Below are positions 1-20,720 of a stretch of 37,567 bases of DNA, one piece after another. The stretch's first letter is position 1, and every line of letters begins with the position of its first letter. The position numbers and the translations under genes are program-made. The notes under the pieces are model-generated. The model was not told where the DNA came from, made no database searches, and worked only from the letters and a program-made list of their open reading frames with translations. The stretch is from the sequence record SRR20825006_561, one strand, 5' to 3'.

Positions 1-1
1 A

Positions 2-184
2 AACAACCTGCGCCGCGCGATCACCATCGACAATGGCAATTGGCTGACCTTGGTCGACAGCCCGTTGTCGATCACACTTTGGTTGATCGCTATCGTCGGC
101 TTCATTTTGCCGCTGATCATTGGCCGCAAAGTGAAATCGAAAATGCACGCCCGGCGTGACGAAGAAGGCTCTCTGGCCGACTGA
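2..184 (+). CDS. tctA: C-terminal fragment of tripartite tricarboxylate transporter large permease (TctA family), 5' end outside window
   Basis: Not in ORF track; frame 2 reads NNLRRAITIDNGNWLTLVDSPLSITLWLIAIVGFILPLIIGRKVKSKMHARRDEEGSLAD* (TGA 182-184). NLRRA...G...P plus a final TM helix and basic tail resembles TctA C-termini. Confidence 0.65.
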   Translation, partial: NNLRRAITIDNGNWLTLVDSPLSITLWLIAIVGFILPLIIGRKVKSKMHARRDEEGSLAD

Positions 185-196
185 AGCAAAAGACTG

Positions 197-229
197 GCGG
201 GCGTTTGTGCTCACGTCGCAAACGCCCGC
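197..229. terminator. GC-rich hairpin between convergent tctA and dapA
   Basis: GCGGGCGTTTG (197-207) pairs perfectly with CAAACGCCCGC (219-229); 12 nt after the tctA stop; U-tract is weak. Confidence 0.55.
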
Positions 230-366
230 TTCTCCCCACGGCTCTGTTTTGCGGCAAGGCTGAAGTCACGCCCCATGCACACGTCCGCGTCGGGGTCGGC
301 AACCCAAAGACACAGCCGGCGTGGCCAAGGCGGTTACGCCGCCAGGGTGGAGTCCTCCGGGCGAGA

Positions 367-1275
367 TTAAAGGGCGAGACCCTCCCGGCGGGTTTTGAAG
401 TCCACCACATGTTGATCCAACACGCTCCGTGATGGTGCCGACACTTCCGCCAGCGGCATCCGCACCGAAGCGGTATAGAGCCCGGCATTGGACAGAACGT
501 ATTTCACCGGGGCGGGGCTGTTTTCGATAAACATGGCATCGGCGATGTCGCGCAGGGCCTCGTGAATGTCCAAGGCGCGCAGGCGATCCCCTGCCTGCCA
601 GGCTTTGTACAGCTCAACACAGATTTCCGGGTCGTAGTTCGAAAACACCGAGGTCAGACCACAAGACCCAAGCGCGTAAAACGCCAGTGCCAGACCGTCA
701 TCGCCACAGTGAATAGCCAGGCCGGGCGCGGCCGTGCGCAGATCAGTCACGCGCGACGGCGCGCCACCGGCTTCTTTGATTGCAACGATGTTGAGATGAC
801 GCTGGGCCAAGGCACCAGCGGTGTCGGGGGCAATCTCAACGCCCGCCCGGCCGGGCACAGAATAGAGCACGACATCGGCTGTGGTTGCATCGGCCACCGC
901 AGAAAAATGGTTGAGCAGCCCCTGTTGTGAGGGCTTGTTGTAATAAGGTGTGACGACCAAAACCCCATCGACGCCAAGCTCGGTTGCACGCTGTGTCGCG
1001 GCTATCGTTTTGGCTGTGGAATTGGACCCGGTGCCGGCCAAAACATAGGCTTTGCCCTTGGCGTGTTTGACCGTATGCGCGATGAGCGCATCGGCTTCCT
1101 CGGAGGTAAGGGTTGCCGCCTCGCCTGTGGTGCCAACGGGCACAAGGCCGGTGATGCCAGCGGCGAGTTGGCGGTCAATCAACCTGTCAAAAGCGACCCA
1201 GTCGATATCGCCGGATTGGGTGAAAGGGGTGATGAGGGCGGTGAAAACACCGTCAAAGCGAGACAGATCGGACAT
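367..1275 (-). CDS. dapA: 4-hydroxy-tetrahydrodipicolinate synthase (DapA/DHDPS family), probably a paralogue
   Basis: TALITPF, GTTGE, TPYYNKPSQ, LYSVPGR, IKEA (Schiff-base Lys), GDD, PAPVK, VRMPL. Start moved to ATG 1275 (MSDLSRF), preceded by GGAGA. Confidence 0.85.
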   Translation of the reverse strand: MSDLSRFDGVFTALITPFTQSGDIDWVAFDRLIDRQLAAGITGLVPVGTTGEAATLTSEEADALIAHTVKHAKGKAYVLAGTGSNSTAKTIAATQRATELGVDGVLVVTPYYNKPSQQGLLNHFSAVADATTADVVLYSVPGRAGVEIAPDTAGALAQRHLNIVAIKEAGGAPSRVTDLRTAAPGLAIHCGDDGLALAFYALGSCGLTSVFSNYDPEICVELYKAWQAGDRLRALDIHEALRDIADAMFIENSPAPVKYVLSNAGLYTASVRMPLAEVSAPSRSVLDQHVVDFKTRREGLAL

Positions 1276-1286
1276 GGGATTCTCCA

Positions 1287-1973
1287 TTAGGATGCAAGCA
1301 AATCTTTGGGGGCGTAGAGGCCATTGGCGCGTCCAACGAGCCAAAGGGCGGCCTCAACCGCACCGGCGGCATAGGCGGCGCGGGTGCGCACATTCAGTTC
1401 AAGGCGCAGCGTGGCGATTTTGTAATCCAGAACAACGGTGGTGATACCAGCCGTATCCCCGATGCGCTGAATGTCGAGATCGATCTCTTTGCCGGTGATC
1501 TCAGAAAGCTCGGCACTCAGCCGTTTGGTGGTGCCGGAGGCGGCCATTTTCTTGCCGGCTTTATAGACCTCCCCCACCGTAATCGCGGCCTCTGGCAAGG
1601 CTTTGCTGAGGGCAAGGGCTGCGGCGGCGAAGGCTTCAAATCCTTTGGTGAAATTGGCACCGATCAAGAGGGCGCGGTGGTCCGCTTCGGCGTGAAGGCG
1701 CGCGGTTTGCGCAGCGGAAAACCCGGTGGTGCCAATGATCACTGGCAAAGAGGTGCCTTGCAGATGGTCCAAAAGTGTCATGACCGCATCCGGTGTGGAA
1801 AAATCAATCACAACATCCGTGCCTGTGAAATCGGCTTCGGCCAATGTCAAAGTGGTGTCTGTGCCAGAGGCCGATATCGCCTCTGCCAGGGTGGCCTGGT
1901 CTGTCTCCGTCAGCAGGGCGCAGACCTCGCGCCCTACTTTACCTGTCGCACCAAAAACCGAAATATGTGTCAT
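1287..1973 (-). CDS. dapB: DapB-like (dihydrodipicolinate reductase family) NAD(P)-dependent oxidoreductase with divergent active site
   Basis: GATGKVG Rossmann motif, DVVIDFS, IGTTGF, ANF, ASGT, R-AYAAGA, GLY. Catalytic HH pair replaced (EVYKAGK). Start ATG 1973. Confidence 0.75.
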   Translation of the reverse strand: MTHISVFGATGKVGREVCALLTETDQATLAEAISASGTDTTLTLAEADFTGTDVVIDFSTPDAVMTLLDHLQGTSLPVIIGTTGFSAAQTARLHAEADHRALLIGANFTKGFEAFAAAALALSKALPEAAITVGEVYKAGKKMAASGTTKRLSAELSEITGKEIDLDIQRIGDTAGITTVVLDYKIATLRLELNVRTRAAYAAGAVEAALWLVGRANGLYAPKDLLAS

Positions 1974-1981
1974 CTGCGGCC

Positions 1982-3379
1982 TCAATCTATCACAACCTTG
2001 GTTTCGCTCATTTCGCGCAGCGCGATGCGGACCCCTTCGCGGCCAAGGCCGGATTTACGCACCCCGCCGAACGGCACATGTTCGACCCGAAAATCGGGGC
2101 CCTCGTTGATCATGACGCCGCCGACTTTGAGCTGACGCGAGGCCAATTTGATTGCGGCGTGATCATTGGTGTAGACGCCAGCCTGAAGTCCAAATCCCGC
2201 CGCGTTCACTTCGCCGATCGCGCCGGAGAAATCGGTGAAGCTGCGGATGGAAATTACCGGACCAAAGGTCTCTTCGCGCATCAGTTTGGAGCGCGGGTCC
2301 ACACCGCTCATCACCACCGGATCGAAATGGGTGTGCTGACGCCGCCCACCGGTCAACACATGCGCGCCTCCGGCCACGGCCGCCTCAATCCGAGCTTCGA
2401 TTTCAATCGCAGAAGCGGCATCAATCACCGGCCCCATGATGGTGGCGGGATCAGAGGGGTCGCCCATGCCGACATTGGCCACCAGCGCCAAAAGGCGGTC
2501 GGTGAAGTCGGCTTCAATCGCCTCATGCACGTAGAGCTTTTTGACCGCGGCACAGCTTTGCCCGGCGATCTCATAGCGTTGCGCCACTGCAGTTTTCGCC
2601 GCCGCCTCAAGATCGCCATCAGGCAGGACAAACAGCGGATCGTTGCCGCCCAATTCCATCAAACACCGCACAAGGCCAGAGGCGTTTTTGAGCGCAAGGC
2701 CTGCGCCGGGGCCACCCGTGAAACTCAACAGGTCAATCGGGGCCTTTGCCAAGGCGGTCGCGGCCTCTGCGCCACCATGGACGATCTGAATCAGGTCTTT
2801 CGGCGCACCCGCCTCGTCGCAGAGATCCATCAACATCTGGGCGGCAAGCGGCGCTTTTGGCGAAGGTTTGGCGATCACCGCATTGCCCGCCGCGATCGCC
2901 GGGCCGAGCTTGTGGCACAACAGGTTCACCGGGTAATTGAACGGCGTGATCGCGGCAACGACGCCGACCGGCTCATAGGTGATCACGGCCTGACGATCAG
3001 GGCCGCCAGCAACGATCCCGGTGTGCAAGACGTCGCCATCCAGAAACGTCGCCGCATCGCCCGACAGGCGCAGAGTGTTTTGGGCGCGGCGGATTTCATT
3101 GCGCGCTTCGGTGATGGTTTTGCCCATTTCCTGCGACACGGTCTGCGCCAGGTTTTCCGCATCTTGTCCCATCAAATCGGCGATCCTGTTCAACAGGGCG
3201 CGGCGTTCATGCGGGGTGGAAAACCGAAAGGCGTCGGCGGCTTTCGTGGCGTTGGCGACGATTGTCCGGATCTCTTCGGTGCTGGTTTCATGAACCTTGC
3301 CGACGAGGCTGTTGTCATAGGGATTGCGCACTTCAAACTCTTGAAGGGTCGCGATGGAGGGAGATTGTACGTTCATCAT
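1982..3379 (-). CDS. Aldehyde dehydrogenase family protein
   Basis: ITPFNYP, AGN...KPS, FTGG, ELGGND, GQSC (catalytic Cys), EETFGP, PFGGVRKSGLGREG. Confidence 0.93.
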   Translation of the reverse strand: MMNVQSPSIATLQEFEVRNPYDNSLVGKVHETSTEEIRTIVANATKAADAFRFSTPHERRALLNRIADLMGQDAENLAQTVSQEMGKTITEARNEIRRAQNTLRLSGDAATFLDGDVLHTGIVAGGPDRQAVITYEPVGVVAAITPFNYPVNLLCHKLGPAIAAGNAVIAKPSPKAPLAAQMLMDLCDEAGAPKDLIQIVHGGAEAATALAKAPIDLLSFTGGPGAGLALKNASGLVRCLMELGGNDPLFVLPDGDLEAAAKTAVAQRYEIAGQSCAAVKKLYVHEAIEADFTDRLLALVANVGMGDPSDPATIMGPVIDAASAIEIEARIEAAVAGGAHVLTGGRRQHTHFDPVVMSGVDPRSKLMREETFGPVISIRSFTDFSGAIGEVNAAGFGLQAGVYTNDHAAIKLASRQLKVGGVMINEGPDFRVEHVPFGGVRKSGLGREGVRIALREMSETKVVID

Positions 3380-4683
3380 TTGAGGTCCTGGTGAGAGGGG
3401 TCCACGGTGAAATCGGGCGCATCAAGAATGTCGCGCACGCGGACGGGTTTGATGGGCCAGCGATTGCCGCGAAGATCGGCAAAGCTGGTGGTGTCGGCAG
3501 TGAGGGCGGCGACCCAGTCGAGACATTGACGGCCTTGACAGGGTCCCATGCCAAACCGTTCGGTGAGGCGCAGGGTGCGGGCCGTCGTTTGGGTTTGCTC
3601 TGAGGCCGCCTGAAGCGCCTGTTTCAGATCACCCAGACTGCGGTTTTCGCAGCGGCAGATGACGGTGTTGTCCGGGAGATCGGGTGCCGCAAGCGAGGGC
3701 GCGCGGGCAAAGAGTTTGGCGAGCAGGGTTTGCGTTTTGACAAATCTCTGGTCAGGCGCGATTGCCGCCCGACCTAGCGTCGCCTTCAAGGCGTGCAGGA
3801 CCTGTTCAGCGGCACGTTTGCCGTCGTCTTCGGCGGCCCAACGCCCCAGAACGGATCGGCAATCTCCGGCCTGAAACACGGGTGTTTGCCCCGTCATTTC
3901 GGCGCTGATGCCAAAGTCGTTGCGTGCCAGCCCGTCATGCAAACCAATGTGGTCCACGGCAATTTCGGCCCAGCGACCCTGACGGCTGGTGTGAGCGATC
4001 AATGCCCCGTTGCGCGTCTCAATCCGGGTCAAATCCGTCCTCGAAAGAATCGGAACGCCTGCAAGCAGAAGTCGCCCCATGTAACGGGCGGCTTCGGTCA
4101 AAACAGGGGCGGGCAAACGCAGAGCCATCAGAGGGTGGCGCAGCGGGTTCCCGGTCTCGATCACCGCGACAGGCGTACGGCCCGCCGCCACCATTTGAGC
4201 TGCGATAGCATAGAGGAGGGGGCCGGTGCCAGCCAACAGAAGACGCCCCAAAGGCAATGTCCCTGTGGTTTTAAGCGCGATTTGCAGCGCCCCGGCACTG
4301 CTCACCCCGGCCAGGGTCCAACCCGGACGGGGTTGAATGCGTTCGCGCGCGCCGGTGGCGAAAATGACCGCGCGGGGTTTGAACATCATGCCAGCCTGCC
4401 CCGTCAGTAGGGCTGTGCCCGTCTGATCAAAGGCGGCGAAGGCGGTCGACAGGCGTAGATCAACACGCGGACGAACGCGGTCGAAATCCTGACGCAGGAT
4501 GCGGGCTTCTCGGGTCAGTTTCGGCGTTAGATTTGGTTGGGCGCGCAAATTGGCATAAACGGCCCCGCCAATGCCCGGTGCATGGTCGACCAAAACAGGG
4601 TGAAGACCTGCGTCGGACAATGTGATGGCGGCACGCAACCCGGCGGGGCCTGCACCGACGATGAGGGGGCGAGTGTCAATCAT
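3376..4683 (-). CDS. FAD/NAD(P)-binding oxidoreductase with C-terminal BFD-like [2Fe-2S] domain (OoxA/HcnB-like subunit)
   Basis: VGAGPAG, ATGARER..P.PGWTL.GV, GTGPL, AGD, ICRCE, GMGPCQGRQC, R.PIKP; 4-bp overlap with the ALDH start. Confidence 0.85.
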   Translation of the reverse strand: MIDTRPLIVGAGPAGLRAAITLSDAGLHPVLVDHAPGIGGAVYANLRAQPNLTPKLTREARILRQDFDRVRPRVDLRLSTAFAAFDQTGTALLTGQAGMMFKPRAVIFATGARERIQPRPGWTLAGVSSAGALQIALKTTGTLPLGRLLLAGTGPLLYAIAAQMVAAGRTPVAVIETGNPLRHPLMALRLPAPVLTEAARYMGRLLLAGVPILSRTDLTRIETRNGALIAHTSRQGRWAEIAVDHIGLHDGLARNDFGISAEMTGQTPVFQAGDCRSVLGRWAAEDDGKRAAEQVLHALKATLGRAAIAPDQRFVKTQTLLAKLFARAPSLAAPDLPDNTVICRCENRSLGDLKQALQAASEQTQTTARTLRLTERFGMGPCQGRQCLDWVAALTADTTSFADLRGNRWPIKPVRVRDILDAPDFTVDPSHQDLK

Positions 4684-4951
4684 GGGCGCTCTCCGTCAGG
4701 CGGTGATCGGACAGGCTGCACACGGATTGCTCCGTATTACAGAGGGTCAGACAGGCCTCCGTCACACCGATGCCTTCGATCGACACCAGGCAGTTTTGGC
4801 ACTGGCCAATGCCGCAAAAAATCGCGGCGGGTAGCGCGGTTTGGCGCAGACCAAACTCCGTGATCCCGGCCCGCGACAGTGCCGAAGCGATTGTATCGCC
4901 GGGGAGAAAGGCAATCGGAGTGCCGTTCCAAAGGATGGTTTGGACGCTCAT
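4676..4951 (-). CDS. Small [2Fe-2S]-binding subunit (HcnA/OoxC-like, Fer2_4)
   Basis: GDTIASAL, FCGIGQCQNCLV...ACLT; start ATG 4951 (MSVQTIL) overlaps the upstream stop. Confidence 0.88.
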   Translation of the reverse strand: MSVQTILWNGTPIAFLPGDTIASALSRAGITEFGLRQTALPAAIFCGIGQCQNCLVSIEGIGVTEACLTLCNTEQSVCSLSDHRLTESAHD

Positions 4952-6111
4952 GCTGGGATCGCCTCTTGTGATGAAAAACGTCCGGGGGTGAGGGCGGCAA
5001 GATCGGGACTGGATTGCCCGGTTGCGAGGTGCGCGGCGATCTCGCGACCGATCAGGGCGGACAGGCAAATCCCATCGCCTTCAAATCCGGTGGCGCAGAT
5101 CACATTCGGCTCTTCCGGCAGGGCACCGACAATTGGCAAACCATCGAGAGACGCGCTGCGCACGCCCGCAAAGACCCGAATGATCCGGCGCTCAGCCAGA
5201 CGTGGCAGACAGCCGACGGCGCTGTGCAGCAGGCGGCGCACGGTGGCGATGTCTGTTTGGCGCTCCGTCCCATGATCTTCGCGGGTTGAGCCGATCAACA
5301 CCTGCCCTGTGCGCAGGGGGTCGATGACGACGGGGAGACCAGCGTCACCGCGCCCGTTTGCCGTTTTATCAAGGAGATACGCGGCAGAGGTCAGCGGGCC
5401 GGGCAGGTTGGGTTCAGATACGGGGCCCCTGTCAGAGACAATCAACTGACCGGAGCGCGCGATCATCGGCACGTTTGGGAGGAGTCCCATGGTGCCGATG
5501 CCGGAGGCGATCACGAGCTGTGCGCAATTCATCTCACCCGCCGAGGTGAAAACCCGCACACCCTCGGGACCCGGCTCATAGGCTTCCAGGCTGCGCGGCC
5601 AAAAGAGATCGCATTTCGCAGCGCGAAGGTAGGCATGGGTGGCTTGGTAGCCGAGCATATGCGCCTCACCTTGCAGTTCGATCACCCGCGTGATGTCTTT
5701 GCCAAGGCCAGAAATGGCCGAGGTTTGCGCGGCCCCATCCTGGTGGATGGTGACGGAAAGGGACTGGTCGTGCAGCATGCGGGTCAGCCGATCAAGTGCT
5801 GCGCTTTCGGGGGCGGAACGGGCAAAGATAAACGTTGGCCGAGGGTGAAAAATGCCTTTTAAAATGCCGTTGTGTTGTGCCATCTCTCGCGCATAGCAAA
5901 GCGAGGCATCGGCAAGGTTGGCCATGAGGCCCGGGCGTTTGGAGGCGACCGAGACGGCCCCATCCGACGCGCCTGAGGCTGCGGCCGCCGGGCCTTTTGC
6001 GTCGATGACGGCGACGCGGAGACCCCGTTGGGTCGCGTGCCATGCCACGGAGGCGCCGATAATGCCGGCTCCGGCAATCACGAGGTCATATGAGTCTGTC
6101 GGCTGCACCAA
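4948..6111 (-). CDS. FAD-dependent oxidoreductase, D-amino-acid oxidase/DadA family (OoxB/HcnC-like subunit)
   Basis: IAGAGIIG, ASGASDG, SGQL, LIGST, FAGVR..S.DGLPIVG, ATGFEGDGI, P.RF. Start uncertain: TTG 6111 or GTG 6108 follow GGAG; ORF track begins at 6147. Confidence 0.88.
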   Translation of the reverse strand: MVQPTDSYDLVIAGAGIIGASVAWHATQRGLRVAVIDAKGPAAAASGASDGAVSVASKRPGLMANLADASLCYAREMAQHNGILKGIFHPRPTFIFARSAPESAALDRLTRMLHDQSLSVTIHQDGAAQTSAISGLGKDITRVIELQGEAHMLGYQATHAYLRAAKCDLFWPRSLEAYEPGPEGVRVFTSAGEMNCAQLVIASGIGTMGLLPNVPMIARSGQLIVSDRGPVSEPNLPGPLTSAAYLLDKTANGRGDAGLPVVIDPLRTGQVLIGSTREDHGTERQTDIATVRRLLHSAVGCLPRLAERRIIRVFAGVRSASLDGLPIVGALPEEPNVICATGFEGDGICLSALIGREIAAHLATGQSSPDLAALTPGRFSSQEAIPA

Positions 6112-6147
6112 GGTTGCTCCAATTTGGTTTGATCCAAGGTTGGGCAA

Positions 6148-6384
6148 TTACGGGCCTGATTTCGATGCAAATATATGCGGTTAAGATACAAAAAAAGTTG
6201 GAACAATTCTGTGTGTGCGCGATAATGATCTGTGACATGTAAATTATTTTGTATATTTGCAGGATGATCTTGTATTGCCTGACGCCCCGATAACGGGTGC
6301 TTTGTAGCAAGGAAGCACGGGAACGCCGTTTTCTCAAAACGAAGTGGCAGCGCAAAAGCTGCCTTGTCCAACAAGGAGATCAGA
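6148..6384. promoter_or_regulatory. AT-rich divergent promoter region between the oxidase operon and ABC operon
   Basis: Visibly AT-rich; TGCAAATATA (6166-6175) and its exact reverse complement TATATTTGCA (6252-6261); recurring ATACAA/TTGTAT hexamers. Confidence 0.6.
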
Positions 6385-7218
6385 ATGAAGCTCAAGGCTT
6401 TTATTGGTGGCACGCTTGCAGCACTTGCCACGGCTGTGTCGATTGGCTCGGCGCAGGCACAAGACAGTAAGATTGATGAAATCCGCGAGCGAGGTACGTT
6501 ACGCATGGCGGGGATTCTCAGCGAAGACCCGTATTTTGCGAAAGATCCGCGCACCGGCGAATGGCGCGGCTTTGCCGTGTCTATGGCGCGTGATATTGCC
6601 GAAACGCTTGGTGTGGAGCTGGAAGTTGTTGAAAGCAGCTGGAGCAACTCGATCCTTGATGTGCAATCGGGCAAAGTGGACCTCGCCTTGGCGCTCACCG
6701 CTTTGCCGAAACGCGCGATGGCGATTTCATTCTCTGACCCGACCTATTACAACAGCTTCGTGATCATCTCCCCGAATGCGGCGCTTGCCGACAAGGGGTG
6801 GGCGGAGTTGAACGATCCGGCCTATACGATCGCGGTTGATCTTGGCTCTGCGCAGGACAATATCGCGCGTCAGTATCTTCCGAACGCAAATGTTCTTCGG
6901 TTCAAATCTCGTGATGAGGCGGTGATTGCGGTCACCACGGGCAAAGCGGACGCGATGATCAACACCGTGTTGAACTCTGTTGTCATGTCCAAAAAGAACC
7001 CGGCGCTTGGCACCGTTTATGTCCCCGAACCCACCCTGTCGTCGCCCTCTGTGATCGGTTTGAATTACGACACAGATGAAACGTGGAAAGCCTTTATTTC
7101 CGCCTGGGCCGATTACAATCGCCGTGTTGGCAACAACCAAACATGGATCGTCGAAAGCCTTGCCCCTTTTGATGTGACCCTGGACGATTTGCCCGAAGGG
7201 TTCGACATCGGCGGATAA
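6385..7218 (+). CDS. Polar amino-acid ABC transporter substrate-binding protein (SBP family 3)
   Basis: AAGGAG RBS before ATG 6385; signal peptide ending AQA; I.ERGTLR, GKVD, R...ISFSDP, GKADA. Confidence 0.92.
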   Translation: MKLKAFIGGTLAALATAVSIGSAQAQDSKIDEIRERGTLRMAGILSEDPYFAKDPRTGEWRGFAVSMARDIAETLGVELEVVESSWSNSILDVQSGKVDLALALTALPKRAMAISFSDPTYYNSFVIISPNAALADKGWAELNDPAYTIAVDLGSAQDNIARQYLPNANVLRFKSRDEAVIAVTTGKADAMINTVLNSVVMSKKNPALGTVYVPEPTLSSPSVIGLNYDTDETWKAFISAWADYNRRVGNNQTWIVESLAPFDVTLDDLPEGFDIGG

Positions 7219-7286
7219 GCCTGTCTTCACCACTCACTCTCGGCGCGCTTTTGGCGCGTCGACCTTACCTATATTCGAGGACCTCC

Positions 7287-7949
7287 ATGTATAACTGGGA
7301 CTTCTACACGGTCTTTCAGTCCTTTGATCTCTTCTGGCACGGGCTGCTCACCACTTTCCTTTACACCATCGGCTCGATTGGCTTTGGCATCGTCATCGGA
7401 CTTGTGACCGCCTTTGCCCGACTGTCTAAATGGCGGCTGTTGCGCGGGGCGGCACGCACCTATCAAGAGGTGTTTCGCTGCACGCCTTTGCTCGTACAAA
7501 TCATGTGGGCCTACTATGCTTTGCCGATGTTGCTGGGGATCAGCATACCGAACTGGATCGCAGGGCTGGCGACGCTCTCGCTTTATGTCGGGTCGTTTTA
7601 CGGTGAAATCTTTCGGGGCGGCATCAATGCAATCGACAAAGGTCAGCGTGAAGCGGCGATGGCGGTTGGCATGTCTGGCGGCCAGGCGATGCGCCATATC
7701 ATCATGCCGCAAGCGGTCAAAAAGATGCTGCCTGCGTTCATCAATCAGTCGGTTATTCAGGTCAAAAATACATCGCTCCTATACGCCATTTCCATCGCGG
7801 AACTGACCTATATGACTTACATCGTGAATAGCGAAACCTACCGCCCGCTCGAAAGCTATTCGATCGCCGCGATCATGTATTTCGCCATGCTTTTCCCGCT
7901 CACCCAATTCGCCGATTACTTCGAACGCCGTATGCGGCGCAGCGACTGA
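7287..7949 (+). CDS. Polar amino-acid ABC transporter permease
   Basis: [26 protein letters not shown] (EAA loop), VKNTSL; start ATG 7287 after GAGG. Confidence 0.93.
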
Positions 7950-7969
7950 ACCGCAAAAAGGACCCTGTT

Positions 7970-8728
7970 ATGACCACGCCTTCTATTCTTTCTGTGCGCG
8001 CGTTGACAAAGAGCTATGGCGAACTTGAGGTGCTCAAAGGTATTGATCTGGACATCACGCCGGGTGAGGTGATTGCCATCATCGGCCCGTCGGGATCAGG
8101 CAAATCCACCTTCATCCGCTGTCTCAACATGATGGAAGTGCCCACGTCGGGATCGTTTCAATTTCGCGGCAGCCATGTGTTGCCGGAGTTTAAGGACAAG
8201 GCGGGAGCGCTTGGAGCGGGCACATTGCGGCGCAAGGTTGGGATGTGTTTTCAACACTTTAACCTGTTTCCCCATTTGACCGTTTTGGACAATGTCACCA
8301 AGGGTCCAATGGTTGTTTTAAAAGAGAGCCAAGTTGAGGCCGAGGCTCATGCGCGTGCGCTTTTGGCCAAGGTCGGTCTTGCCGATAAGGAAAACTATTA
8401 TCCCAGCAAACTCTCCGGTGGGCAAAAACAGCGGGTGGCGATTGCGCGTTCTCTGGCAATGCGCCCGGATGTGATGTTGTTTGACGAGGTGACCAGCGCG
8501 CTTGATCCCGAGCTGGTGTCTGAGGTGTTGCAGGTGGTGCGGGATTTGGCCGAAGGAGGGATGACCATGGTGTTGGTCACGCATGAAATGGCCTTTGCCG
8601 CGGATGTCGCGGACCGGGTGATTTTTATCGACAATGGTGTGATTGCCGAACAAGGCCCGCCGCAGGAGGTGATGCACAGCCCCCAATCCGAACGGCTTCA
8701 ACAGTTTCTTCAGCGATTTCACGCATGA
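7970..8728 (+). CDS. Polar amino-acid ABC transporter ATP-binding protein (GlnQ-like)
   Basis: [43 protein letters not shown]. Confidence 0.95.
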
Positions 8729-9822
8729 CCCGTTCTATGCCGCCCGCTGAAACCTGCAAAATCGTCATTGTCGGCGGCGGGCGCTCCGGCACCGCCATCG
8801 CGCGGGTGTTTGGTGCGGATCGGGCCTTTTCGCCTCTTGTGCTGGACATCGACTATGACCGTGTGCGTCTTTTGCAAGCGGAGGGCCTCAATGCCGCACA
8901 GGTCAGTGGCACGGATTTAGACGGGATGGGGCAGGCTCTAAAGGGGGCGGCGGCAGTCATATGCGCTGCGCCGCCCTCCGTTGTGCCCAGTACCGCAAAA
9001 GCCGCGCGCGCGGCGGGTTGCGTGTATTTGGACCTGTGCGAAGACCCAAAAGCATTGCGCGCGGTGTTTGAGATCGCCGCAGGGGCGGAAACGCCCTTCG
9101 CGCCGGGCTGCGGTCTTGCGCCGGGGCTGATTTCACTCATGGTGGACGATCTTGTGACTCGCAGTGGTCCAGAGGCAGAGATCACCGCCTATGTCGGTGT
9201 TTTGCCGGCCAAAAAAACCAATCGTCTCGGCTATGGCAATATGTGGGACATTGAGGCGTTGATCGCGGAATATACCCAGCCCTGTGCTGCGCTGGCGGAC
9301 GGTAAGGTGGTCGGCTTGGCGCCGCTCGACAACCTCGAAACCGTAACCATTTCCGGCGAGACCTTTGAAGCCTTTACCACTTCGGGCACATTGGATGCTT
9401 TGGTCTCGCACTATGAGGGCCGCTTGAAGGGGTTGACGTTTAAGACGCTGCGCTATCATGGGCACCTCGATTACATCTCCTTTCTGCTCGATGATCTGGG
9501 CCTGTCAAAGCGGCTTTATCTTATGCGCAACCTGCTTTTGACCGGGCTTGAACGGATCGAGGACGATCGGGTGATTGTGCATCTGACCTGCTGCGTTGGT
9601 GCGCAGGAACGGACACAGACGCGGCTGTTCTCACCGTCATCACTGTCGCGGCAGACTCCGACGTCCGCCCTTGCGCATATTTCAGCGTATCATGTCTGTT
9701 CGGTGGCGGACATACTCGTGCGTGGTCTTGCGCCGCGCAAGGGTCTGTTGCACCATGGCGATCTTTCACTTGAGATCCTTTCGAACTCTGCCTTTTCAAA
9801 GGCCCTCTTCACCAACGCCTAG
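8725..9822 (+). CDS. Saccharopine dehydrogenase / L-lysine 6-dehydrogenase family protein
   Basis: N-terminal GGGRSG, YLDL.ED, GCGLAPG, VG.LP, LGY...W....LI.EY, EAF.TSG, KTLRY.GH; ATGA overlap with the ATPase gene. Confidence 0.85.
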
Positions 9823-9852
9823 GGTCGCAAGGCTCTCACCGGGGAGCAAATC

Positions 9853-10770
9853 ATGTCCGAGAAGCCGCGTATCGCGCAGACTCAAAAAATCGACATTTCG
9901 CTTTTGCAGACCTTTCATTTGGTTGCAAAAATCGGGTCTTTTTCCGGTGCGGCGCGTGAACTCAATATTTCCTACCAATCCGCCGCCAATCATGTCCGAC
10001 GGCTTGAGCAGCTTTATGGCACGCAGTTGGTGAAGGCCGAAAAAGGCTCGCGCGAGATTGTTTTGACGGCTCCGGGGCGCGCGCTTCACGCTTCATTGGG
10101 GGCGGAACTTGACACGATTTTCGCGCGGCTGTCGCTTTTGCTGCGAAATGTCCATTCGGTGATGCGGTTTGGTGTCCCGCAGGCGCTGTTTCATGCGTTC
10201 TTTCCCGAAATTGTCAGGCAGGTGAAAGAAACCCATCCCGATATGGAGCTGAATTTTTTTGAGCGCGACACGGTTCTGTCGTCGATGATGGTCAACGGCG
10301 AATTGGACGCCTGCGTTTGTGAACGTTTCTTTGGCGATGCCAGCATTTCGCAGGTTCTTTTGGGGCAATACCGTCTCGCCTTGGTCTATCCGCAACATTG
10401 GGCGCGCGACTACGCCTCAAGCAATGACCTCGCCTCTTTGCAACAGGAGAATTTTATCACCTACGAGCCGGGTCAAACCCTGCGCTCGCGGGGGATTGAT
10501 TTCCTCACCAAGAAACTGGGCAAAGCACCGCAAAACATGACCACCGTCTCGGGCTCGACCTCCGTCATGGAGCTTGTCAGGGCCGGGATCGGGTATGCCA
10601 TCGTGCCCGAATGGGTTGCCGAAGCGGCGGGAGAGAAGGTCAAATGGATCATTCTCGACGAGATGCAGACCGTAAAGGTCTATTTTGCCACGCCGGTTTT
10701 CTTGTCTGAGGACCCGGTGCTTGTTTTTACACGAGAAATTTGTCGCAATGTGATGGGGTTTCGGGTCTGA
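9853..10770 (+). CDS. LysR family transcriptional regulator
   Basis: F..VA..GSFS.AARELNISYQS....VRRLE HTH, LT.PG, GELD, LV.AG.G.AIVP. Confidence 0.92.
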   Translation: MSEKPRIAQTQKIDISLLQTFHLVAKIGSFSGAARELNISYQSAANHVRRLEQLYGTQLVKAEKGSREIVLTAPGRALHASLGAELDTIFARLSLLLRNVHSVMRFGVPQALFHAFFPEIVRQVKETHPDMELNFFERDTVLSSMMVNGELDACVCERFFGDASISQVLLGQYRLALVYPQHWARDYASSNDLASLQQENFITYEPGQTLRSRGIDFLTKKLGKAPQNMTTVSGSTSVMELVRAGIGYAIVPEWVAEAAGEKVKWIILDEMQTVKVYFATPVFLSEDPVLVFTREICRNVMGFRV

Positions 10771-10842
10771 CACAGCAAAAGGCCTGCCGCTTTAACCCAA
10801 CGCGCAGCCGCCCAGGACATGCCTTATCCCCCCCATTGGGCG

Positions 10843-11301
10843 TTATTTGTTCCTATTTTGCTGTGCGAGATACGCCTCAAACGCCGCCAAAGTGCCCTCG
10901 GAGACGTGGTGTTCGATCCCTTCGGCGTCAAGTTCGGCGGTGGTTTCAGGCACGCCCACGGCGATGAGCAAGGCCACAACGCTGCGATGTCGCGCCCGCA
11001 CCCGATCCGCCAGGGCCGCGCCGTCGTCGGTTAAGAAGACGCCGCGATAGGGGCGAGACGTCGCCAAGCCTTCGCGTTTCAGCCGGGCGATGGCTTTGGT
11101 GGCCGTGGGTTGCGCCACGCCCATGCGCTCGGCAATATCGGCCACGCGGGCTTCGCCATGCTCAGCGATCAAATCGCCGATCATTTCGACATAGTCCTCC
11201 AACAGGGCCACCGCCTGAACTTCGCGGGCACGGGTGAAGCGATCCGCTTGCGAGGCACTCTGTTGTTCTGGCGGAAGATTGGTCGAAAGCGATGGGGCCA
11301 T
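10843..11301 (-). CDS. mntR: Manganese-responsive DtxR-family regulator MntR
   Basis: EDYVEMI.DL....GEAR..DIA.RMGV.QPT, PYRGVFLT, R.RH, DAEGIEHHVS; divergent from mntH; GGAG RBS. Confidence 0.93.
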   Translation of the reverse strand: MAPSLSTNLPPEQQSASQADRFTRAREVQAVALLEDYVEMIGDLIAEHGEARVADIAERMGVAQPTATKAIARLKREGLATSRPYRGVFLTDDGAALADRVRARHRSVVALLIAVGVPETTAELDAEGIEHHVSEGTLAAFEAYLAQQNRNK

Positions 11302-11429
11302 AACGGCGCTCCTGTTCTGTTGGGAATTCTGTATAGCCTAGGGATGACTTTTTCACCAGCATTTAGATTGTGTGGCAAAGGTACGCGGGCTTATATCAGA
11401 GGGTGTCGCTATTCAGGTCAGATTTACTG

Positions 11430-11457
11430 TTGCAATAAGTATAGCGATGGCTATAAA
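11430..11457 (+). promoter_or_regulatory. mntH promoter overlapped by an MntR-type operator
   Basis: Perfect palindrome TATAGC-gatg-GCTATA (11440-11455) matches the ATAGC-N4-GCTAT core of the E. coli MntR box; candidate -35 TTGCAA (11430-11435) and -10 TATAAA (11452-11457), 16-nt spacer. Confidence 0.8.
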
Positions 11458-11488
11458 TCGGCGTAACATTTATTTGTAAGGCGCGTTC

Positions 11489-12778
11489 ATGCCCTCCCTC
11501 ACAGATCGCACAAAACAAGGCATTGCCTCTGTTCTCTCCGGGGACCGTGGCGGCTGGCGTGCGCGCCTGCTGTTTGCCGGGCCTGCCATTATCGCCTCGG
11601 TGGCCTATATGGACCCCGGCAATTACGCCACGAACATCCAGGCGGGCGCGGGCTATGGCTATACGCTGTTATGGGTTGTGCTTTTGGCCAATCTGATCGC
11701 GATGCTGTTTCAGGCGCTCTCAGCGCGGCTGGGCATCGTGACCGGAAAAAACCTGGCCGAACTGTCGCGGGACAATTTCCCTCGCCCGGTGGTCTGGATC
11801 ATGTGGGCGATCAGCGAAGTCGCCGCCATGGCGACGGATTTGGCCGAGTTTTTGGGCGGTGCCATCGGGCTGGCGCTCCTGTTTGACCTGCCGTTGATGG
11901 TCGGAATGATCATCACTGCCATCGTCACCTATGCGATCCTGATCTTTGAGGGCAGAGGCTTTCGCCCAATGGAATTGATCATTGGCGCGCTCGTGGGTGT
12001 CATTGGCCTGTGTTACCTGGCCGAAATCATCATCGCGCCAATTGATTGGGGCGGGGCGGCCATGGGGATGATCACGCCGGAATTGCCCGATGCGGCGGCG
12101 CTGACCATTGCGGTCGGCATCATCGGGGCCACTGTGATGCCCCACGCGATCTACCTGCATTCGGGCCTGACGCAATCGCGTGCCAATGTGCGCAATGCCG
12201 CCGAGCGGCGCAGGGTTTTGAAATTCTCCAACACCGAAGTCGTGGTCGCGCTTGCGGTGGCGGGCATGGTCAATATGGCGATGGTGATGATGGCGGCCTC
12301 TGCCTTTCACTTGGGTCATTCGGATGTGGCCGAAATCGAAACCGCCTACCATACGCTCACACCGCTCTTGGGTGCGGCTGCGGCGGGCATGTTCTTGGCC
12401 TCTTTGATTGCCTCGGGCATTTCAAGCTCGGTCGTCGGCACCATGGCGGGTCAGATGATCATGCAGGGGTTCTTGCATTTTCATGTGCCGATTTGGATTC
12501 GCCGTTTGGTGACCATGGTTCCGGCCTTTGCCGTTGTTGCCGCAGGCGTGAATGCCACTGATGCTTTGGTGATGTCGCAAGTCGTGCTCTCCATCGCTCT
12601 GCCCGTGCCGATGATCGCGCTGATCATTTTCGTGTCGCGCCGTGAAATTATGGGCGAGTTTGTGATCCATCCGGGGCTGCGTCTCTTGGCCGGGGTTGGG
12701 GCCGTTGCGGTGCTGGGGTTGAACTTCGTGCTTTTGGCGGAGTTCTTTGGCCTCAGCATGCCGTTTCTTGCAGGATAG
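11489..12778 (+). CDS. mntH: Nramp-family divalent metal (Mn2+) transporter MntH
   Basis: YMDPGN, GATVMPH, GTMAGQ.IMQGF, SQV.LS; multiple TM helices. Confidence 0.95.
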   Translation: MPSLTDRTKQGIASVLSGDRGGWRARLLFAGPAIIASVAYMDPGNYATNIQAGAGYGYTLLWVVLLANLIAMLFQALSARLGIVTGKNLAELSRDNFPRPVVWIMWAISEVAAMATDLAEFLGGAIGLALLFDLPLMVGMIITAIVTYAILIFEGRGFRPMELIIGALVGVIGLCYLAEIIIAPIDWGGAAMGMITPELPDAAALTIAVGIIGATVMPHAIYLHSGLTQSRANVRNAAERRRVLKFSNTEVVVALAVAGMVNMAMVMMAASAFHLGHSDVAEIETAYHTLTPLLGAAAAGMFLASLIASGISSSVVGTMAGQMIMQGFLHFHVPIWIRRLVTMVPAFAVVAAGVNATDALVMSQVVLSIALPVPMIALIIFVSRREIMGEFVIHPGLRLLAGVGAVAVLGLNFVLLAEFFGLSMPFLAG

Positions 12779-12925: not shown

Positions 12926-15900
12926 ATGGCGATTTACGCATCCATCCATCACGTCACCCATTATAAATATGATCGCAATGTTGACCTTGGCCCGCAAATC
13001 ATCCGTCTGCGTCCCGCGCCACATTCGCGCACGCGGGTGATTTCGCATTCGCTCAAGGTTTCTCCTGCCAATCATTTTGTCAATCGCCAACAAGATCCCT
13101 ATGGCAACTGGCAGACCCGGTTTGTGTTCCCCGAACCCGTGCGGGAATTCAAAATCGAGGTCGATCTTGTCGCCGATATGACCGTCTATAACCCGTTCGA
13201 TTTCTTTATCGAAGAAGAGGCCGAAGAGTGGCCGTTTGAGTATCCGGCGGACCTCAGGGACGATCTTGTGATCTACCGCACCCCCGAACCCGAAGGCCCG
13301 CTTTTGGCGCAATTCATCGGCACTCTCGATCTCAAAAAGATGCGGACGGTGGATTTTCTGGTCGGGCTGAACGCCCAGATCGCCAATTTCGTGAATTACA
13401 CCATTCGGATGGAAGCGGGGGTGCAGACGCCCGAAGAGACGCTTGAAAAACGCTCCGGCTCGTGTCGCGATTCCAGTTGGTTGTTGGTGCAGGTGCTGCG
13501 CCATCTGGGCCTGGCCGCGCGCTTTGTGTCAGGCTATCTCATTCAACTCAAACCCGATGTCGAGGCGCTCGATGGCCCCTCTGGCACGGATCATGATTTC
13601 ACCGATCTTCATGCCTGGTGCGAAGTGTTTATCCCCGGCGCGGGCTGGATCGGGCTCGATCCGACCTCCGGGCTTTTGACCGGCGAAAGCCATATCCCGC
13701 TGGCCGCCACCCCGCATTACCGCAACGCCGCGCCGATTTCGGGTGGCTACACCTCGGTCGGCGCACCTGAGGTCAGCTTTGATTTCCAAATGGAGGTCAA
13801 ACGTGTCTCTGAACATCCGCGCATCACCAAACCTTTCTCGGATGAGGCATGGGATCGGCTCAACGCGCTGGGTCATAAGGTCGATAAAGCGCTGAAAGAG
13901 GGAGACGTGCGCCTGACCATGGGCGGTGAGCCGACCTTTGTGTCGATTGATGATTTTGAAAGCGCGGAATGGAACACCGAAGCCGTGGGGCCGCAAAAGC
14001 GCGCCTTGGCCGATGAGCTGATCCGGCGGCTGCAAACCCGGTTCGCGCCGGGGGGCTTTCTGCATTATGGCCAAGGCAAATGGTATCCGGGTGAAAGCCT
14101 GCCGCGTTGGACCTTTTCGCTCTATTGGCGGCGCGATGGTAAACCGGTTTGGAAAAACCCGGACCTGATCGCGAAGGAGGATGTGCCTGTGCCCGCTGGC
14201 GCGACAGAGGCCGGGGCGTTTATGAAGAAGTTCGCCGAAAACCTCGGCGTCGACCCGGTCAACGCCCAACCTGCCTATGAGGACCCGGCGGAATGGATTT
14301 TGAAAGAATCCCTGCTGCCGCCCAATGTGAACCCGGAAAACAGCAAGCTGAAGAACCCCGAAGACCGCGCTCGCTATGCGCGGGTGTTTGAGCGCGGGTT
14401 GACCGAACCCTCGGGCTATGTCCTGCCGATCCAGCGCTGGCAATCAAAAGCCGGGTCAAATTGGATTTCGGAGCTGTGGCAAACCCGGCGCGGGCGTTTG
14501 TTTTTGGTGCCCGGTGATAGCCCGGTGGGCTTCCGCCTGCCTTTGGGCGCTTTGCCGCATATTCCTCCGGCGAGTTTCCCCTATTCCTATCCGTCTGACC
14601 CGATGATGGATCACGGGCCTTTACCGGATTTCCACAAAAAGCTGTCTGAACGGCGCAAGCGGGTGGAGGACGAAATCGCCCGATTGGCCGCCGAAGAAGA
14701 GGCGCGTGCGGCACAGGAAGCCAAGGAAAAATCCGATCTTTTGCCTGAGGCATCCGAGGGCCACAGCCAACCCGTGAGCCAAGCCAAAGTGTCTGAGGCC
14801 GAACGTCAGGCGCTTATCGCGCAGGGCATTGATCCGTCCACCAGCGAAGTGCGCACCGCGATTGCGATTGAGCCGCGCGACGGGCGGTTGTGTCTGTTCA
14901 TGCCGCCCTGTGAGGCGCTTGAGGATTACCTTGAACTGTTGGCCGCAGCCGAAGACACCGCCGAAGAGCTTGGCCTGCCGATCCATGTCGAAGGCTATTC
15001 CCCGCCCGAAGATCCGCGTCTCAATGTGATCCGTGTCGCCCCCGATCCCGGCGTGATCGAGGTGAATATTCACCCGGCGCATAGCTGGGACGATTGTGTT
15101 GCCACCACGGAGGCGATCTATGCAGAGGCGCGTTTGTCGCGTCTGGGCGCGGATAAATTCATGATCGACGGGCGCCATACCGGAACCGGCGGCGGCAACC
15201 ACGTTGTTGTCGGCGGGGCGACACCTGCGGATTCGCCCTTCCTGCGTCGTCCGGATTTGCTCAAATCTCTGATCCTGATCTGGCAACGTCATCCGGCGCT
15301 GTCTTATCTGTTCTCTGGGTTGTTCATCGGCCCAACGTCCCAAGCTCCGCGTATTGATGAGGCGCGGCACGACACGCTTTATGAGCTCGAAATCGCCCTG
15401 TCGCAGATCACGCCTCCGACCGAGGGCGCGGTGCCGCCCGCATGGTTGGTGGATCGTTTGCTGCGCAATATGTTGACCGACGTGACAGGCAACACCCACC
15501 GCGCCGAGATTTGTATCGACAAATTGTTCTCCCCAGATGGGCCGACCGGGCGGCTTGGCTTGGTCGAATTCCGGGGCTTCGAGATGCCACCGCATCCGCG
15601 CATGAGCCTTGCGCAACAGGTGTTGTTACGCGCCATCATCGCGCGCTGTTGGAACGCGCCTGTCGAGGGCAAGCCGGTGCGTTGGGGCACGGTGTTGCAT
15701 GATCGGTTCATGTTGCCGCATTTCCTGTGGGAAGATCTTTTGTCGCTTCTGAATGATCTCAAATTGCACGGATTCGAGTTGGACCCGGAATGGTATGTCG
15801 CGCAGGCCGAGTTCCGCTTTCCGTTTTGTGGTCAGATTGAGGCCGAGGGCGTTCATCTTGAAATCCGTCAGGCGCTTGAGCCGTGGCATGTGTTGGGCGA

Positions 15901-16369: not shown

Positions 16370-16453
16370 GCCTTGTTCAGGGCGTTTTGCGGTAGTCTAA
16401 TCTCGCGAAACGCCCCAGAGGCAAAGGCAAGGTTAGGATACCCAAGGGACATC

Positions 16454-18877: not shown

Positions 18878-18880
18878 GCG

Positions 18881-20593: not shown

Positions 20594-20705
20594 AGTGATG
20601 TCCTTTGCGGGGCTGGTGCTGTGCTGGGGGCTCTTTGTCCCAATGCTTGAGCCAAAGATGGTACTTGATGTGAGGGAATGAAATAGCGAATATATGGAAT
20701 GACTA

Positions 20706-20720
20706 GGAACAAAACATTCC
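20706..20720. promoter_or_regulatory. Candidate operator in the ygiD/LysR divergent region
   Basis: GGAA-N7-TTCC dyad immediately upstream of the LysR start, inside an AT-rich stretch with a further GGAA 5' of it. Confidence 0.35.

Follow-up and report, generated by a model that had tools for sequence, protein, structure and literature searches.

The window, by which we mean the whole stretch of 37,567 nucleotides from sequence record SRR20825006_561 that was analysed, carries at 367-10770 eleven open reading frames (ORFs) in two divergent arms, all at the positions given in an initial annotation of this DNA (Table 1). The left arm is transcribed in the order D-amino-acid-oxidase (DAO)-family subunit, 2Fe-2S subunit, OoxA/HcnB-like subunit, aldehyde dehydrogenase (ALDH), DapB-like protein and DapA paralog; the right arm encodes an ATP-binding cassette (ABC) importer, a relative of lysine dehydrogenases and a LysR-type regulator. 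The cluster is probably an amino-acid catabolic operon with a heterotrimeric flavoprotein and a probably undescribed route. Our comparisons suggest that it imports a C7 dicarboxylate of the diamino or imino type, diaminopimelate being the likeliest, and degrades it through tetrahydrodipicolinate and the 4-hydroxy form of the latter to pyruvate and aspartate semialdehyde, and then to aspartate, a reading whose chances we consider evenly balanced.

Table 1 Genes and intergenic region of the divergent cluster, with the labels used in the text
Feature	Position	Strand	Profile match or remark
DapA paralog (4-hydroxy-tetrahydrodipicolinate synthase family)	367-1275	-	PF00701, 266 bits; TIGR00674
DapB-like NAD(P) oxidoreductase (E3)	1287-1973	-	DapB_N + DapB_C
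NAD(P)-dependent aldehyde dehydrogenase (ALDH)	1982-3379	-	PF00171 Aldedh, 449 bits
Flavoprotein alpha subunit, OoxA/HcnB-like (E1 alpha)	3376-4683	-	Pyr_redox_2 (PF07992)
Small 2Fe-2S subunit, 91 aa (E1 gamma)	4676-4951	-	PF13510 Fer2_4, 56 bits
DAO-family FAD subunit, catalytic (E1 beta)	4948-6147	-	PF01266, 148 bits
AT-rich divergent intergenic region between the arms	6148-6384	.	GC dip
Periplasmic substrate-binding protein, polar amino-acid ABC importer	6385-7218	+	SBP_bac_3
ABC permease	7251/7287-7949	+	BPD_transp_1; TIGR01726 above cut-off; ATG 7287 is an alternative start
ABC ATPase	7970-8728	+	ABC_tran
Lysine-6-dehydrogenase/saccharopine-dehydrogenase-family NAD(P) enzyme (E2)	8725-9822	+	Sacchrp_dh_NADP + Sacchrp_dh_C
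LysR-type transcriptional regulator	9853-10770	+	HTH_1 + LysR_substrate

Family calls were made with Pfam and NCBIfam profiles and their curated cut-offs, and they bore out all eleven family assignments of the initial annotation. Inspection of the start codons showed its overlaps (4948-4951, 4676-4683 and 3376-3379) and its gaps of 8 nt and 11 nt to be exact, and added an ATGA overlap between the ATPase and E2 genes at 8725-8728. The ATG of the 2Fe-2S gene at 4951 overlaps the DAO stop codon as ATGA, and that of the OoxA-like gene overlaps the 2Fe-2S stop by 8 nt; the ATG codons of the DapB-like gene (1973) and of the DapA gene (1275) are both preceded by GAGG/GGAG, and the DAO subunit probably starts at 6108-6111.

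The GC content falls to 0.53 in 6001-7000, and the intergenic region between the arms presumably carries promoters and LysR sites. A scan for consensus promoters and terminators did not rise above shuffled sequence (2 hits where 3.8 were expected, and 16 where 15 were), and the one sigma-70-like match, at 6198-6226(+), is at chance level. We propose that the cluster is substrate-inducible.

Conservation and the Astrobacterium variant

The cluster proteins are 96-100% identical to those of Celeribacter baekdonensis B30 contig 1 (locus L006); the host is a marine Celeribacter, harmless and open to cultivation. The initial annotation had implied that the gene combination would be conserved elsewhere, and this is what we found: a genome scan with the DapB-like alignment as query and one genome per species gave, among the best 80 loci, 24 with at least ten of the eleven genes, one variant, four short fragments and 51 ordinary dapA/dapB loci. 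At least 24 species genomes carry the cluster as a unit; in metagenomes, six of the best 14 of 80 loci, an ocean scaffold included, hold all eleven genes, and one further locus, limited by its contig, holds nine. Three gene orders occur. Group 1, with the layout of the window, is found in Paracoccaceae. Group 2 is found in many Hyphomicrobiales (Ciceribacter, Neorhizobium, Rhizobium, Hoeflea, Devosia, Mesorhizobium, Stappia, Chelativorans, Pinisolibacter and Prosthecomicrobium are in the group) and in an Arenimonas; its core of DAO, 2Fe-2S, OoxA-like, ALDH, DapB-like and DapA genes is unchanged, and the permease, ATPase and E2 genes are placed after DapA. The third order is that of genome G344. 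On plasmid p.BB_1 of Pannonibacter phragmitetus (L087) the gene set lies between unrelated flanks.

The cluster is nevertheless rare: it was seen in 2 of 301 genomes at the family level, where a second Celeribacter lacks it, in 2 of 401 at the class level with the ALDH as query, and, when DapA served as query, in 6 of 401 in the order around Astrobacterium. Given that the same gene set recurs in 24 of the 80 loci and in three gene orders, the arrangement is far beyond chance, and the cluster is a rare but strongly conserved functional unit under selection. The LysR regulator is present in every complete cluster examined (43-80% identical). The transporter type varies, from the cluster's own ABC system to another ABC system in Chelativorans and a TRAP transporter in Astrobacterium; all these types carry carboxylate-bearing solutes. 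In public records, the genes at 13252-14934 of the Pannonibacter locus are labelled ‘dapA’ and ‘dihydrodipicolinate reductase C-terminal domain-containing protein’ and carry lysine-biosynthesis Gene Ontology terms; such labels are likely a systematic mis-annotation of catabolic paralogs.

A variant cluster in Astrobacterium formosum (L016) bears most directly on the end of the pathway. Its genes encode, in order, a TRAP transporter, LysR, the three flavoprotein subunits, the DapB-like protein, DapA, E2, aspartate-semialdehyde dehydrogenase (Asd), aspartate kinase, a sodium symporter and aspartate ammonia-lyase (aspartase, AspA), the extra genes from Asd to aspartase lying inside the variant cluster at 12955-18831 of that locus. 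The variant is without the ALDH and the ABC system, and Asd and the kinase stand in their place, behind E2. All three aspartate enzymes score above their cut-offs: Asd with 444 bits against 324 (TIGR01296), the kinase with 301 against 209 (TIGR00657) and AspA with 717 against 681 (TIGR00839). As the genome has a second asd and a second ask elsewhere, the copies in the variant are dedicated ones. An ALDH and a reversed Asd plus kinase share one reaction, L-aspartate semialdehyde to L-aspartate. Because Asd and the kinase, with aspartase, displace the ALDH, we strongly infer that the semialdehyde of the cluster would be L-aspartate semialdehyde, with aspartate as the end product. Combined with an intact DapA (see below), the displacement points to 4-hydroxy-tetrahydrodipicolinate as the likely C7 intermediate, to be split into pyruvate and aspartate semialdehyde. 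If run in reverse, Asd and the kinase of the variant would generate ATP through substrate-level phosphorylation, and aspartase would then release fumarate.

Three features make a catabolic direction of flux probable: the ALDH, which works one way and is found in every cluster but the variant, the importers, and the aspartase of the variant. Non-phosphorylating ALDHs act only towards the acid, and binding-protein-dependent ABC and TRAP systems are importers. The opposite direction, which we rate as the least likely of the alternatives considered here, would make the cluster a feedback-independent branch from imported aspartate or fumarate to tetrahydrodipicolinate, and from there to diaminopimelate or lysine, with E2 as a reductive aminase, or to another product made by E1. 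The AspA, kinase, Asd, DapA and DapB-like genes of the variant do form a biosynthetic sequence, accompanied by a DctP-family importer, and dedicated aspartokinase paralogs are known in ectoine biosynthetic clusters. However, all other complete clusters examined have the ALDH, an enzyme unable to reduce aspartate, instead of Asd and the kinase; a divergent layout of LysR plus importer is typical of catabolic operons, as is a flavoprotein dehydrogenase of the respiratory type; and the very sparse distribution (2/301 and 6/401 genomes) is in organisms that already have the pathway.

Enzymes of the cluster

The cluster's dapA and dapB are extra, specialised paralogs, as the initial annotation needed them to be: in G001, the nearest genome compared (67% of sampled words shared), a separate housekeeping dapA, which scores higher (329 bits), lies elsewhere, as does a true dapB (273 bits). 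The DapA paralog is itself a member of the TIGR00674 equivalog family (291.4 bits against a cut-off of 206.15), as is its Astrobacterium ortholog (312 bits). GTTGE, PYYNK, Y..VPGR, IKEAGG and GDD are invariant in all 27 cluster copies and common to the housekeeping DapA of G001; the paralog was also aligned to solved DapA structures, and the Schiff-base Lys motif, both Tyr motifs and the ‘VPGR’ Arg are retained in 27/27. In E. coli DapA numbering the Schiff-base Lys is K161, the Tyr/Thr/Tyr triad is Y133/T44/Y107, and the ‘VPGR’ Arg is R138, which binds the carboxylate of aspartate semialdehyde. A quick tree places the 27 copies in one clade against 31 other DapA proteins (Shimodaira-Hasegawa-like approximate likelihood ratio test, SH-aLRT, 100). 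With a better dapA elsewhere in G001 and a clade of its own, the paralog is not the cell's biosynthetic enzyme of the lysine pathway, and we propose that it may act as a retro-aldolase yielding pyruvate and L-aspartate semialdehyde.

These residues also bear on a six-membered-ring analogue of the hydroxyproline pathway, in which E2, E3 or E1 would turn a hydroxylated lysine or pipecolate into a 4-hydroxy cyclic imine, the DapA-like enzyme would cleave or deaminate it to pyruvate plus an amino-aldehyde or a keto-semialdehyde, and the ALDH would oxidise this aldehyde. The skeleton of the cluster (alpha-beta-gamma flavoprotein, an enzyme of the dihydrodipicolinate synthase (DHDPS) family, ALDH, importer and regulator) is common with the D-hydroxyproline route, and the binding protein weakly matches the lysine/arginine/ornithine-type model TIGR01096. 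We nonetheless find this alternative quite improbable: no epimerase is among the eleven proteins, the score of the DapA paralog is that of a true dapA equivalog, with the ‘VPGR’ Arg retained in 27/27, and the displacement of the ALDH by Asd and kinase fits aspartate semialdehyde rather than 3-aminopropanal or 2-oxoglutarate semialdehyde.

E3 has the fold of DapB but not its full substrate-site motif. Its AlphaFold2 model (predicted local distance difference test score, pLDDT, 94.9) superimposes on the solved DapB structures 4ywj, 8d57, 1dru and 5us6 with template-modelling (TM) scores of 0.89-0.91 at 22-27% identity, and the nucleotide-binding GxxGxxG is present, with G[TA]TGF also conserved. 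E3 scores 84.3 bits against TIGR00036 and its Astrobacterium ortholog 113.7, both below the cut-off of 122. The substrate-site motif E-x-H-H-x-x-K...SGT, which in the housekeeping DapB of G001 reads EAHHNKKVDAPSGTA, is incomplete: the housekeeping ‘HHxxK’ is ‘Y[KNH]xxK’ in 27/27 E3 proteins, so that Tyr replaces the first His while Lys and SGT are kept, and the second position is K or N in group 1 and H in group 2. In DapB, the first His and the Lys of this motif are catalytic. The 27 E3 proteins form one clade against 51 other DapB proteins (SH-aLRT 100, stem 1.57 changes per site; quick tree). The initial annotation had given the DapB-like enzyme an oxidation step in its candidate route, but ten clusters found with queries other than E3 rule out an obligatory, dedicated step: the gene is present in G001, G032, G344, G302, G837, G732, G901 and G1086, and missing from two otherwise complete clusters, one in each group (G012 and G1065). 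In these two (L108, 10428-12876, and L218, 9809-12074), DapA follows directly after the ALDH.

E2 was given no role in the initial annotation, although it is conserved throughout: in every complete cluster examined, it lies directly after the transporter ATPase gene, or after DapA where the ATPase is missing or elsewhere. Its nearest relative in sequence and fold is a characterised lysine dehydrogenase. The only sequence matches in the PDB are 3abi (L-lysine dehydrogenase PH1688, full-length, E 7e-16) and 3ic5; the AlphaFold2 model (pLDDT 88.7) has 3abi as top fold match with a TM score of 0.79-0.83, and 8deb is among the fold matches. E2 and 3abi are 23-24% identical and have core residues in common. 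ESM Atlas returned only generic ‘saccharopine dehydrogenase family’ clusters. Diaminopimelate is 6-carboxy-lysine; because E2 is a lysine-dehydrogenase paralog, we propose that it may be a diaminopimelate dehydrogenase forming tetrahydrodipicolinate.

Paralogs of E2 (33-36% identical) occur in Paracoccaceae, with a different ALDH adjacent in six of eight loci; that ALDH is 28-30% identical to the one in the cluster. Loci L110-L112 and L114-L116 hold E2 paralogs beside the different ALDH, probably as pairs of a true lysine 6-dehydrogenase and an aminoadipate-semialdehyde dehydrogenase. The signature R167/G169/Y250 is invariant in E2 and reads A/K/I in the ALDH-paired paralogs. PH1688 carries Pro and Tyr at the positions of R167 and G169, and a structural reading of that swap was dropped for this reason. 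The pairs, and the fact that the nearest solved relative of E2 is an L-lysine dehydrogenase, would suit a cluster for lysine or pipecolate degradation, in which E2 would be a true L-lysine 6-dehydrogenase, the ALDH would act on 2-aminoadipate semialdehyde and E1 on pipecolate or D-lysine, and the dap paralogs would balance lysine pools. This is very unlikely in our view, as the pairs use another ALDH, E2 differs from the paired paralogs at the three conserved signature residues, and neither the DapA paralog nor the replacement by Asd, kinase and aspartase is explained.

It is also conceivable, if unlikely, that the substrate releases aspartate semialdehyde directly, being 2,4-diaminobutyrate, an N-(3-amino-3-carboxypropyl) compound or a diaminobutyrate opine. 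E1 would then cleave an opine-type C-N bond, E2 would yield the semialdehyde as a reversed carboxyspermidine or lysine dehydrogenase, the ALDH (or Asd and kinase) would form aspartate, and DapA and the DapB-like protein would run forwards, draining semialdehyde and pyruvate into tetrahydrodipicolinate. In L016, E2 directly precedes Asd and the kinase, and the permease and the ATPase come close to the ectoine Ehu models in score without reaching the cut-offs. According to PMC10413350, the E2 family includes a carboxyspermidine dehydrogenase that uses aspartate semialdehyde and has a His-Glu-Glu triad, and 8deb is among our fold matches; the E1 type likewise includes opine dehydrogenases (PMC4575208). 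Yet direct release leaves a strictly conserved, catalytically intact DapA without a catabolic reason, and DapA and the ALDH would compete for one intermediate; E2 is nearer to the lysine dehydrogenase 3abi than to carboxyspermidine dehydrogenase, and the eleven proteins include no ectoine-route hydrolase, deacetylase or transaminase. Ectoine degradation as such was rejected for want of the same three enzymes among the eleven proteins.

E1 is of the heterotrimeric type, with adjacent, translationally coupled genes for DAO (PF01266), 2Fe-2S (PF13510) and OoxA/HcnB-like (PF07992) subunits, and appears to belong to the D-hydroxyproline/opine dehydrogenase type. The OoxA-like subunit has Pyr_redox_2/FAD motifs in its N-terminal part, and its residues 318-396 match a stretch of GlpA and NirB that is a BFD-like 2Fe-2S domain; the Pannonibacter ortholog of the small subunit is annotated as a 90-aa 2Fe-2S protein. 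The DAO subunit is the sole copy of its type in G001 at E<=1e-10, and among NCBIfam models ThiO comes nearest, with 122 bits against a cut-off of 251. It is only 25-30% identical to the DAO genes that accompany 2Fe-2S genes on Agrobacterium plasmids, hence not closely like a characterised opine oxidase, and its best plasmid matches (38-42% identical) are uncharacterised. A related trio of DAO, 2Fe-2S and FAD-oxidoreductase genes lies on Sinorhizobium meliloti plasmid pB (L086, 8827-17035) and on pSymA of strain 1021, with DAO 38-39% identical; the L086 trio was set aside as part of a different, uncharacterised system of this enzyme type, with an oligopeptide-type (Opp-like) ABC importer and no dap genes. 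Enzymes of the D-hydroxyproline/opine type oxidise C(alpha)-N bonds, and the opine dehydrogenases are homologous to D-hydroxyproline dehydrogenase (D-HypDH) (PMC4575208).

The ALDH is 63-85% identical across clusters. Its nearest NCBIfam models, all below cut-offs, are SafD, lactaldehyde dehydrogenase, PhnY and succinate-semialdehyde dehydrogenase (SSADH), which are small acidic-aldehyde dehydrogenases, and its PDB neighbours are SSADH, ALDH21 and GAPN; that it would oxidise L-aspartate semialdehyde to L-aspartate is proposed from the displacement by Asd and kinase. The importer is a three-component polar amino-acid ABC system with a signal peptide and reaches no specific equivalog cut-off. 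Its binding protein (60-83% identical across clusters) has a signal-peptide-like N-terminus, judged by eye, and starts at ATG 6385 behind AAGGAG; it gives a weak match of the lysine/arginine/ornithine (LAO) type (TIGR01096, 72 bits), and its PDB neighbours are first reconstructed ancestral solute-binding proteins from the line of cyclohexadienyl dehydratase and then amino-acid-binding proteins. The nearest models of the ATPase are TcyN, GlnQ and EhuA, all below cut-offs.

A proposed route from diaminopimelate to aspartate

We propose a route in five steps: the ABC system would import the C7 compound; E2 and/or E1 would oxidise a C-N bond to give tetrahydrodipicolinate; ring desaturation and hydration would give 4-hydroxy-tetrahydrodipicolinate; the DapA paralog would split this by retro-aldol cleavage into pyruvate and L-aspartate 4-semialdehyde; and the ALDH would oxidise the semialdehyde irreversibly to L-aspartate, pulling the sequence. 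The likeliest substrate would be meso- or LL-2,6-diaminopimelate from peptidoglycan; piperidine-2,6-dicarboxylate, put forward in the initial annotation, is an alternative candidate, and diaminopimelate would fit at least as well. The same annotation had DapA cleave its substrate to pyruvate and a semialdehyde that the ALDH oxidises, and this part gains comparative support from Asd, kinase and aspartase in L016, whereas it is conjecture what the substrate is, in which order E1, E2 and E3 act and what each of them does; its option of an opine found no specific support. Reduction of dipicolinate or chelidamate as the entry was rejected, on account of poor thermodynamics and of E1 and E2 being left without a role.

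From diaminopimelate, as from piperidine-dicarboxylate, a single C-N oxidation suffices to reach tetrahydrodipicolinate, and this cannot be the task of E1 and E2 alike. The two could be parallel entries for different isomers or for piperidine-dicarboxylate; alternatively, and preferably, E1 would oxidise the remaining C(alpha)-N bond of the enamine form of tetrahydrodipicolinate, with a high-potential acceptor, instead of an NAD(P)+-dependent reversal of DapB. In this preferred form of the third step, E1 would desaturate the ring and pass the electrons to the respiratory chain, and E3 or the housekeeping DapB would assist or substitute. Desaturation by E1 fits because the DapB-like gene is dispensable in some clusters; where E3 is absent, its step could fall to the housekeeping DapB or to spontaneous hydration.

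Several points weigh against this route. A single C-N oxidation leaves one of the strictly conserved E1 and E2 in need of a second role, and we know of no precedent for desaturation of tetrahydrodipicolinate by an enzyme like E1. Thermodynamics disfavours both an NAD(P)-linked reversal of DapB and a DapA reaction in the retro-aldol direction, and neither has, to our knowledge, been demonstrated. The nucleotide motifs kept in E3 argue against a mere hydratase role, yet E3 is missing from two of ten clusters. The housekeeping dapA and dapB were seen in G001 and not in the window's own assembly. Aspartase, kinase, Asd, DapA and the DapB-like protein of L016 can also be read in a biosynthetic order, from fumarate to tetrahydrodipicolinate. 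No known diaminopimelate binder is among the nearest solved relatives of the binding protein, which are reconstructed ancestors of cyclohexadienyl dehydratase that bind cationic amino acids. Finally, the sole published marine route for diaminopimelate that we found uses LysA (PMC9602339).

The fullest version of the proposal, a first dedicated catabolic pathway for peptidoglycan diaminopimelate with E2 as a dehydrogenase of a new type, a respiratory E1 that desaturates tetrahydrodipicolinate, a DapA retro-aldolase and an ALDH leading to aspartate, is tentative and rather doubtful. Dead biomass in soil and in the sea contains diaminopimelate as a major component specific to bacteria. If true, the pathway would be a new branch of amino-acid catabolism, and it would mean that DapA and DapB chemistry, the textbook ‘irreversible’ steps of biosynthesis and targets of antibiotics and herbicides, can be recruited in reverse. 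It would give functions to three unannotated subfamilies (the Tyr-type DapB-like proteins, the R167-type members of the saccharopine-dehydrogenase family and this flavoprotein clade) and would correct the mis-annotation as ‘dapA’ and lysine biosynthesis, which would inflate pathway predictions.

Genomic surroundings and comparison with known systems

Both flanks are unrelated to the cluster. On the left lies a single 123-aa ORF without a family; at 267-336, just 3' of the DapA stop, contigs in two seawater RNA libraries, from a strain about 96-97% alike, skip 68 bases, a strain-level indel. On the right, at 10843-12778, a regulator of the iron-dependent-repressor family (MntR-like) is divergent from an Nramp (MntH-like) transporter. 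Further along the window follow, at 12926-19768, three genes for a 1147-aa DUF2126 protein that has transglutaminase domains, an 834-aa protein of circularly permuted ATP-grasp + Alpha-E type and a 295-aa protein resembling transglutaminases; an extradiol dioxygenase subunit of the LigB family, a LysR regulator and a 652-aa paralog resembling elongation factor G at 19775-23679; a MacAB-like efflux pair at 23841-26976; and surface-polysaccharide genes at 27059-36628 (epimerase, sugar transferase, Polysacc_synt_2, group 4 capsule-type YjbH/YjbF and Capsule_synth).

Four RNA-library runs were compared with the window. In two seawater libraries of one study, contigs about 96-97% alike cover nearly all of 1-12000, on both strands and including the flanks, a pattern that carry-over of DNA or general abundance would give as well. 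A third metatranscriptome holds small contigs alone, between 6159 and 10703 and over the adjoining mntH, and these contigs give no level, strand or condition.

A literature search that had subscription papers and supplements outside its reach found no catabolic route for diaminopimelate or piperidine-dicarboxylate, and nothing relevant on DHDPS or dihydrodipicolinate reductase together with D-HypDH, on diaminopimelate as a carbon source or on homoserine catabolism; ‘teneraic acid’ and piperidine-dicarboxylate led to unrelated papers only, and dapA, dapB and saccharopine are all absent from GapMind 2026. The cluster has no close match among characterised hydroxyproline or opine pathways, as the initial annotation had supposed, given the 25-30% identity of its DAO to Agrobacterium plasmid genes and the lack of a proline-racemase-type epimerase among the eleven proteins.

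The D-hydroxyproline cluster is similar in outline. Watanabe et al. reportedly found that D-hydroxyproline catabolism uses a heterotrimeric D-hydroxyproline dehydrogenase, a DHDPS-family deaminase and a 2-oxoglutarate-semialdehyde dehydrogenase, and both clusters combine tandem beta-gamma-alpha flavoprotein genes with an ALDH and an enzyme of the DHDPS family, and include a regulator and an importer for amino acids. In contrast, Pfam finds no proline-racemase-family epimerase among the eleven proteins or the flanking ORFs here; the DHDPS-family member is a dapA equivalog with all synthase motifs; conserved DapB-like and lysine-dehydrogenase-like enzymes are added; and the aldehyde, judged by the displacement by Asd and kinase, would be aspartate semialdehyde. 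With the biosynthetic DapA-DapB pair the cluster shares families, folds and intact DapA motifs, whereas its proteins form clades of their own, in one operon with an ALDH and a respiratory-type dehydrogenase, and are proposed to run in reverse; E3 moreover differs from biosynthetic DapB in falling below the family cut-off and in having Tyr for the first motif His.

The opine systems resemble E1 itself. OdhABC, a flavin-containing opine dehydrogenase of Pseudomonas putida, has three subunits in the gene order B-C-A, and the cluster shares with it and with the Ti-plasmid OoxAB/NoxAB the three-subunit architecture, the B-C-A order and a nearby ABC importer (PMC4575208, where dihydrodipicolinate, saccharopine and aldehyde dehydrogenase go unmentioned). 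Unlike these systems, the cluster has a DAO 25-30% identical to the Agrobacterium plasmid type and no arginine- or ornithine-handling genes, and its downstream enzymes suggest that a C7 skeleton is cut into C3 and C4. For the last step, DoeC of ectoine degradation in Halomonas elongata is a parallel by role: it is an ALDH-family aspartate-semialdehyde dehydrogenase known genetically (PMC3187862), and the cluster's ALDH-superfamily enzyme is likewise proposed to turn aspartate semialdehyde into aspartate at the end of a catabolic route. The semialdehyde would come from retro-aldol cleavage here, whereas that of DoeC comes from transamination of diaminobutyrate.

E2 resembles the L-lysine 6-dehydrogenase PH1688 (3abi), its best match in sequence and fold, with which it shares core residues; compared to the lysine dehydrogenase + ALDH pairs, it is only 33-36% identical, has its own R167/G169/Y250 and adjoins a transporter and dap paralogs. 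The nearest ecological counterpart is the LysA-dependent use of diaminopimelate. In PMC9602339, free diaminopimelate is given as 0.6-1 µM in Pacific seawater, marine Pseudomonadota use it through decarboxylation by LysA to lysine, and the terms dapA, dapB and tetrahydrodipicolinate are absent. The two would share the same ecological substrate and the same kind of bacteria, but the route proposed here would bypass lysine.

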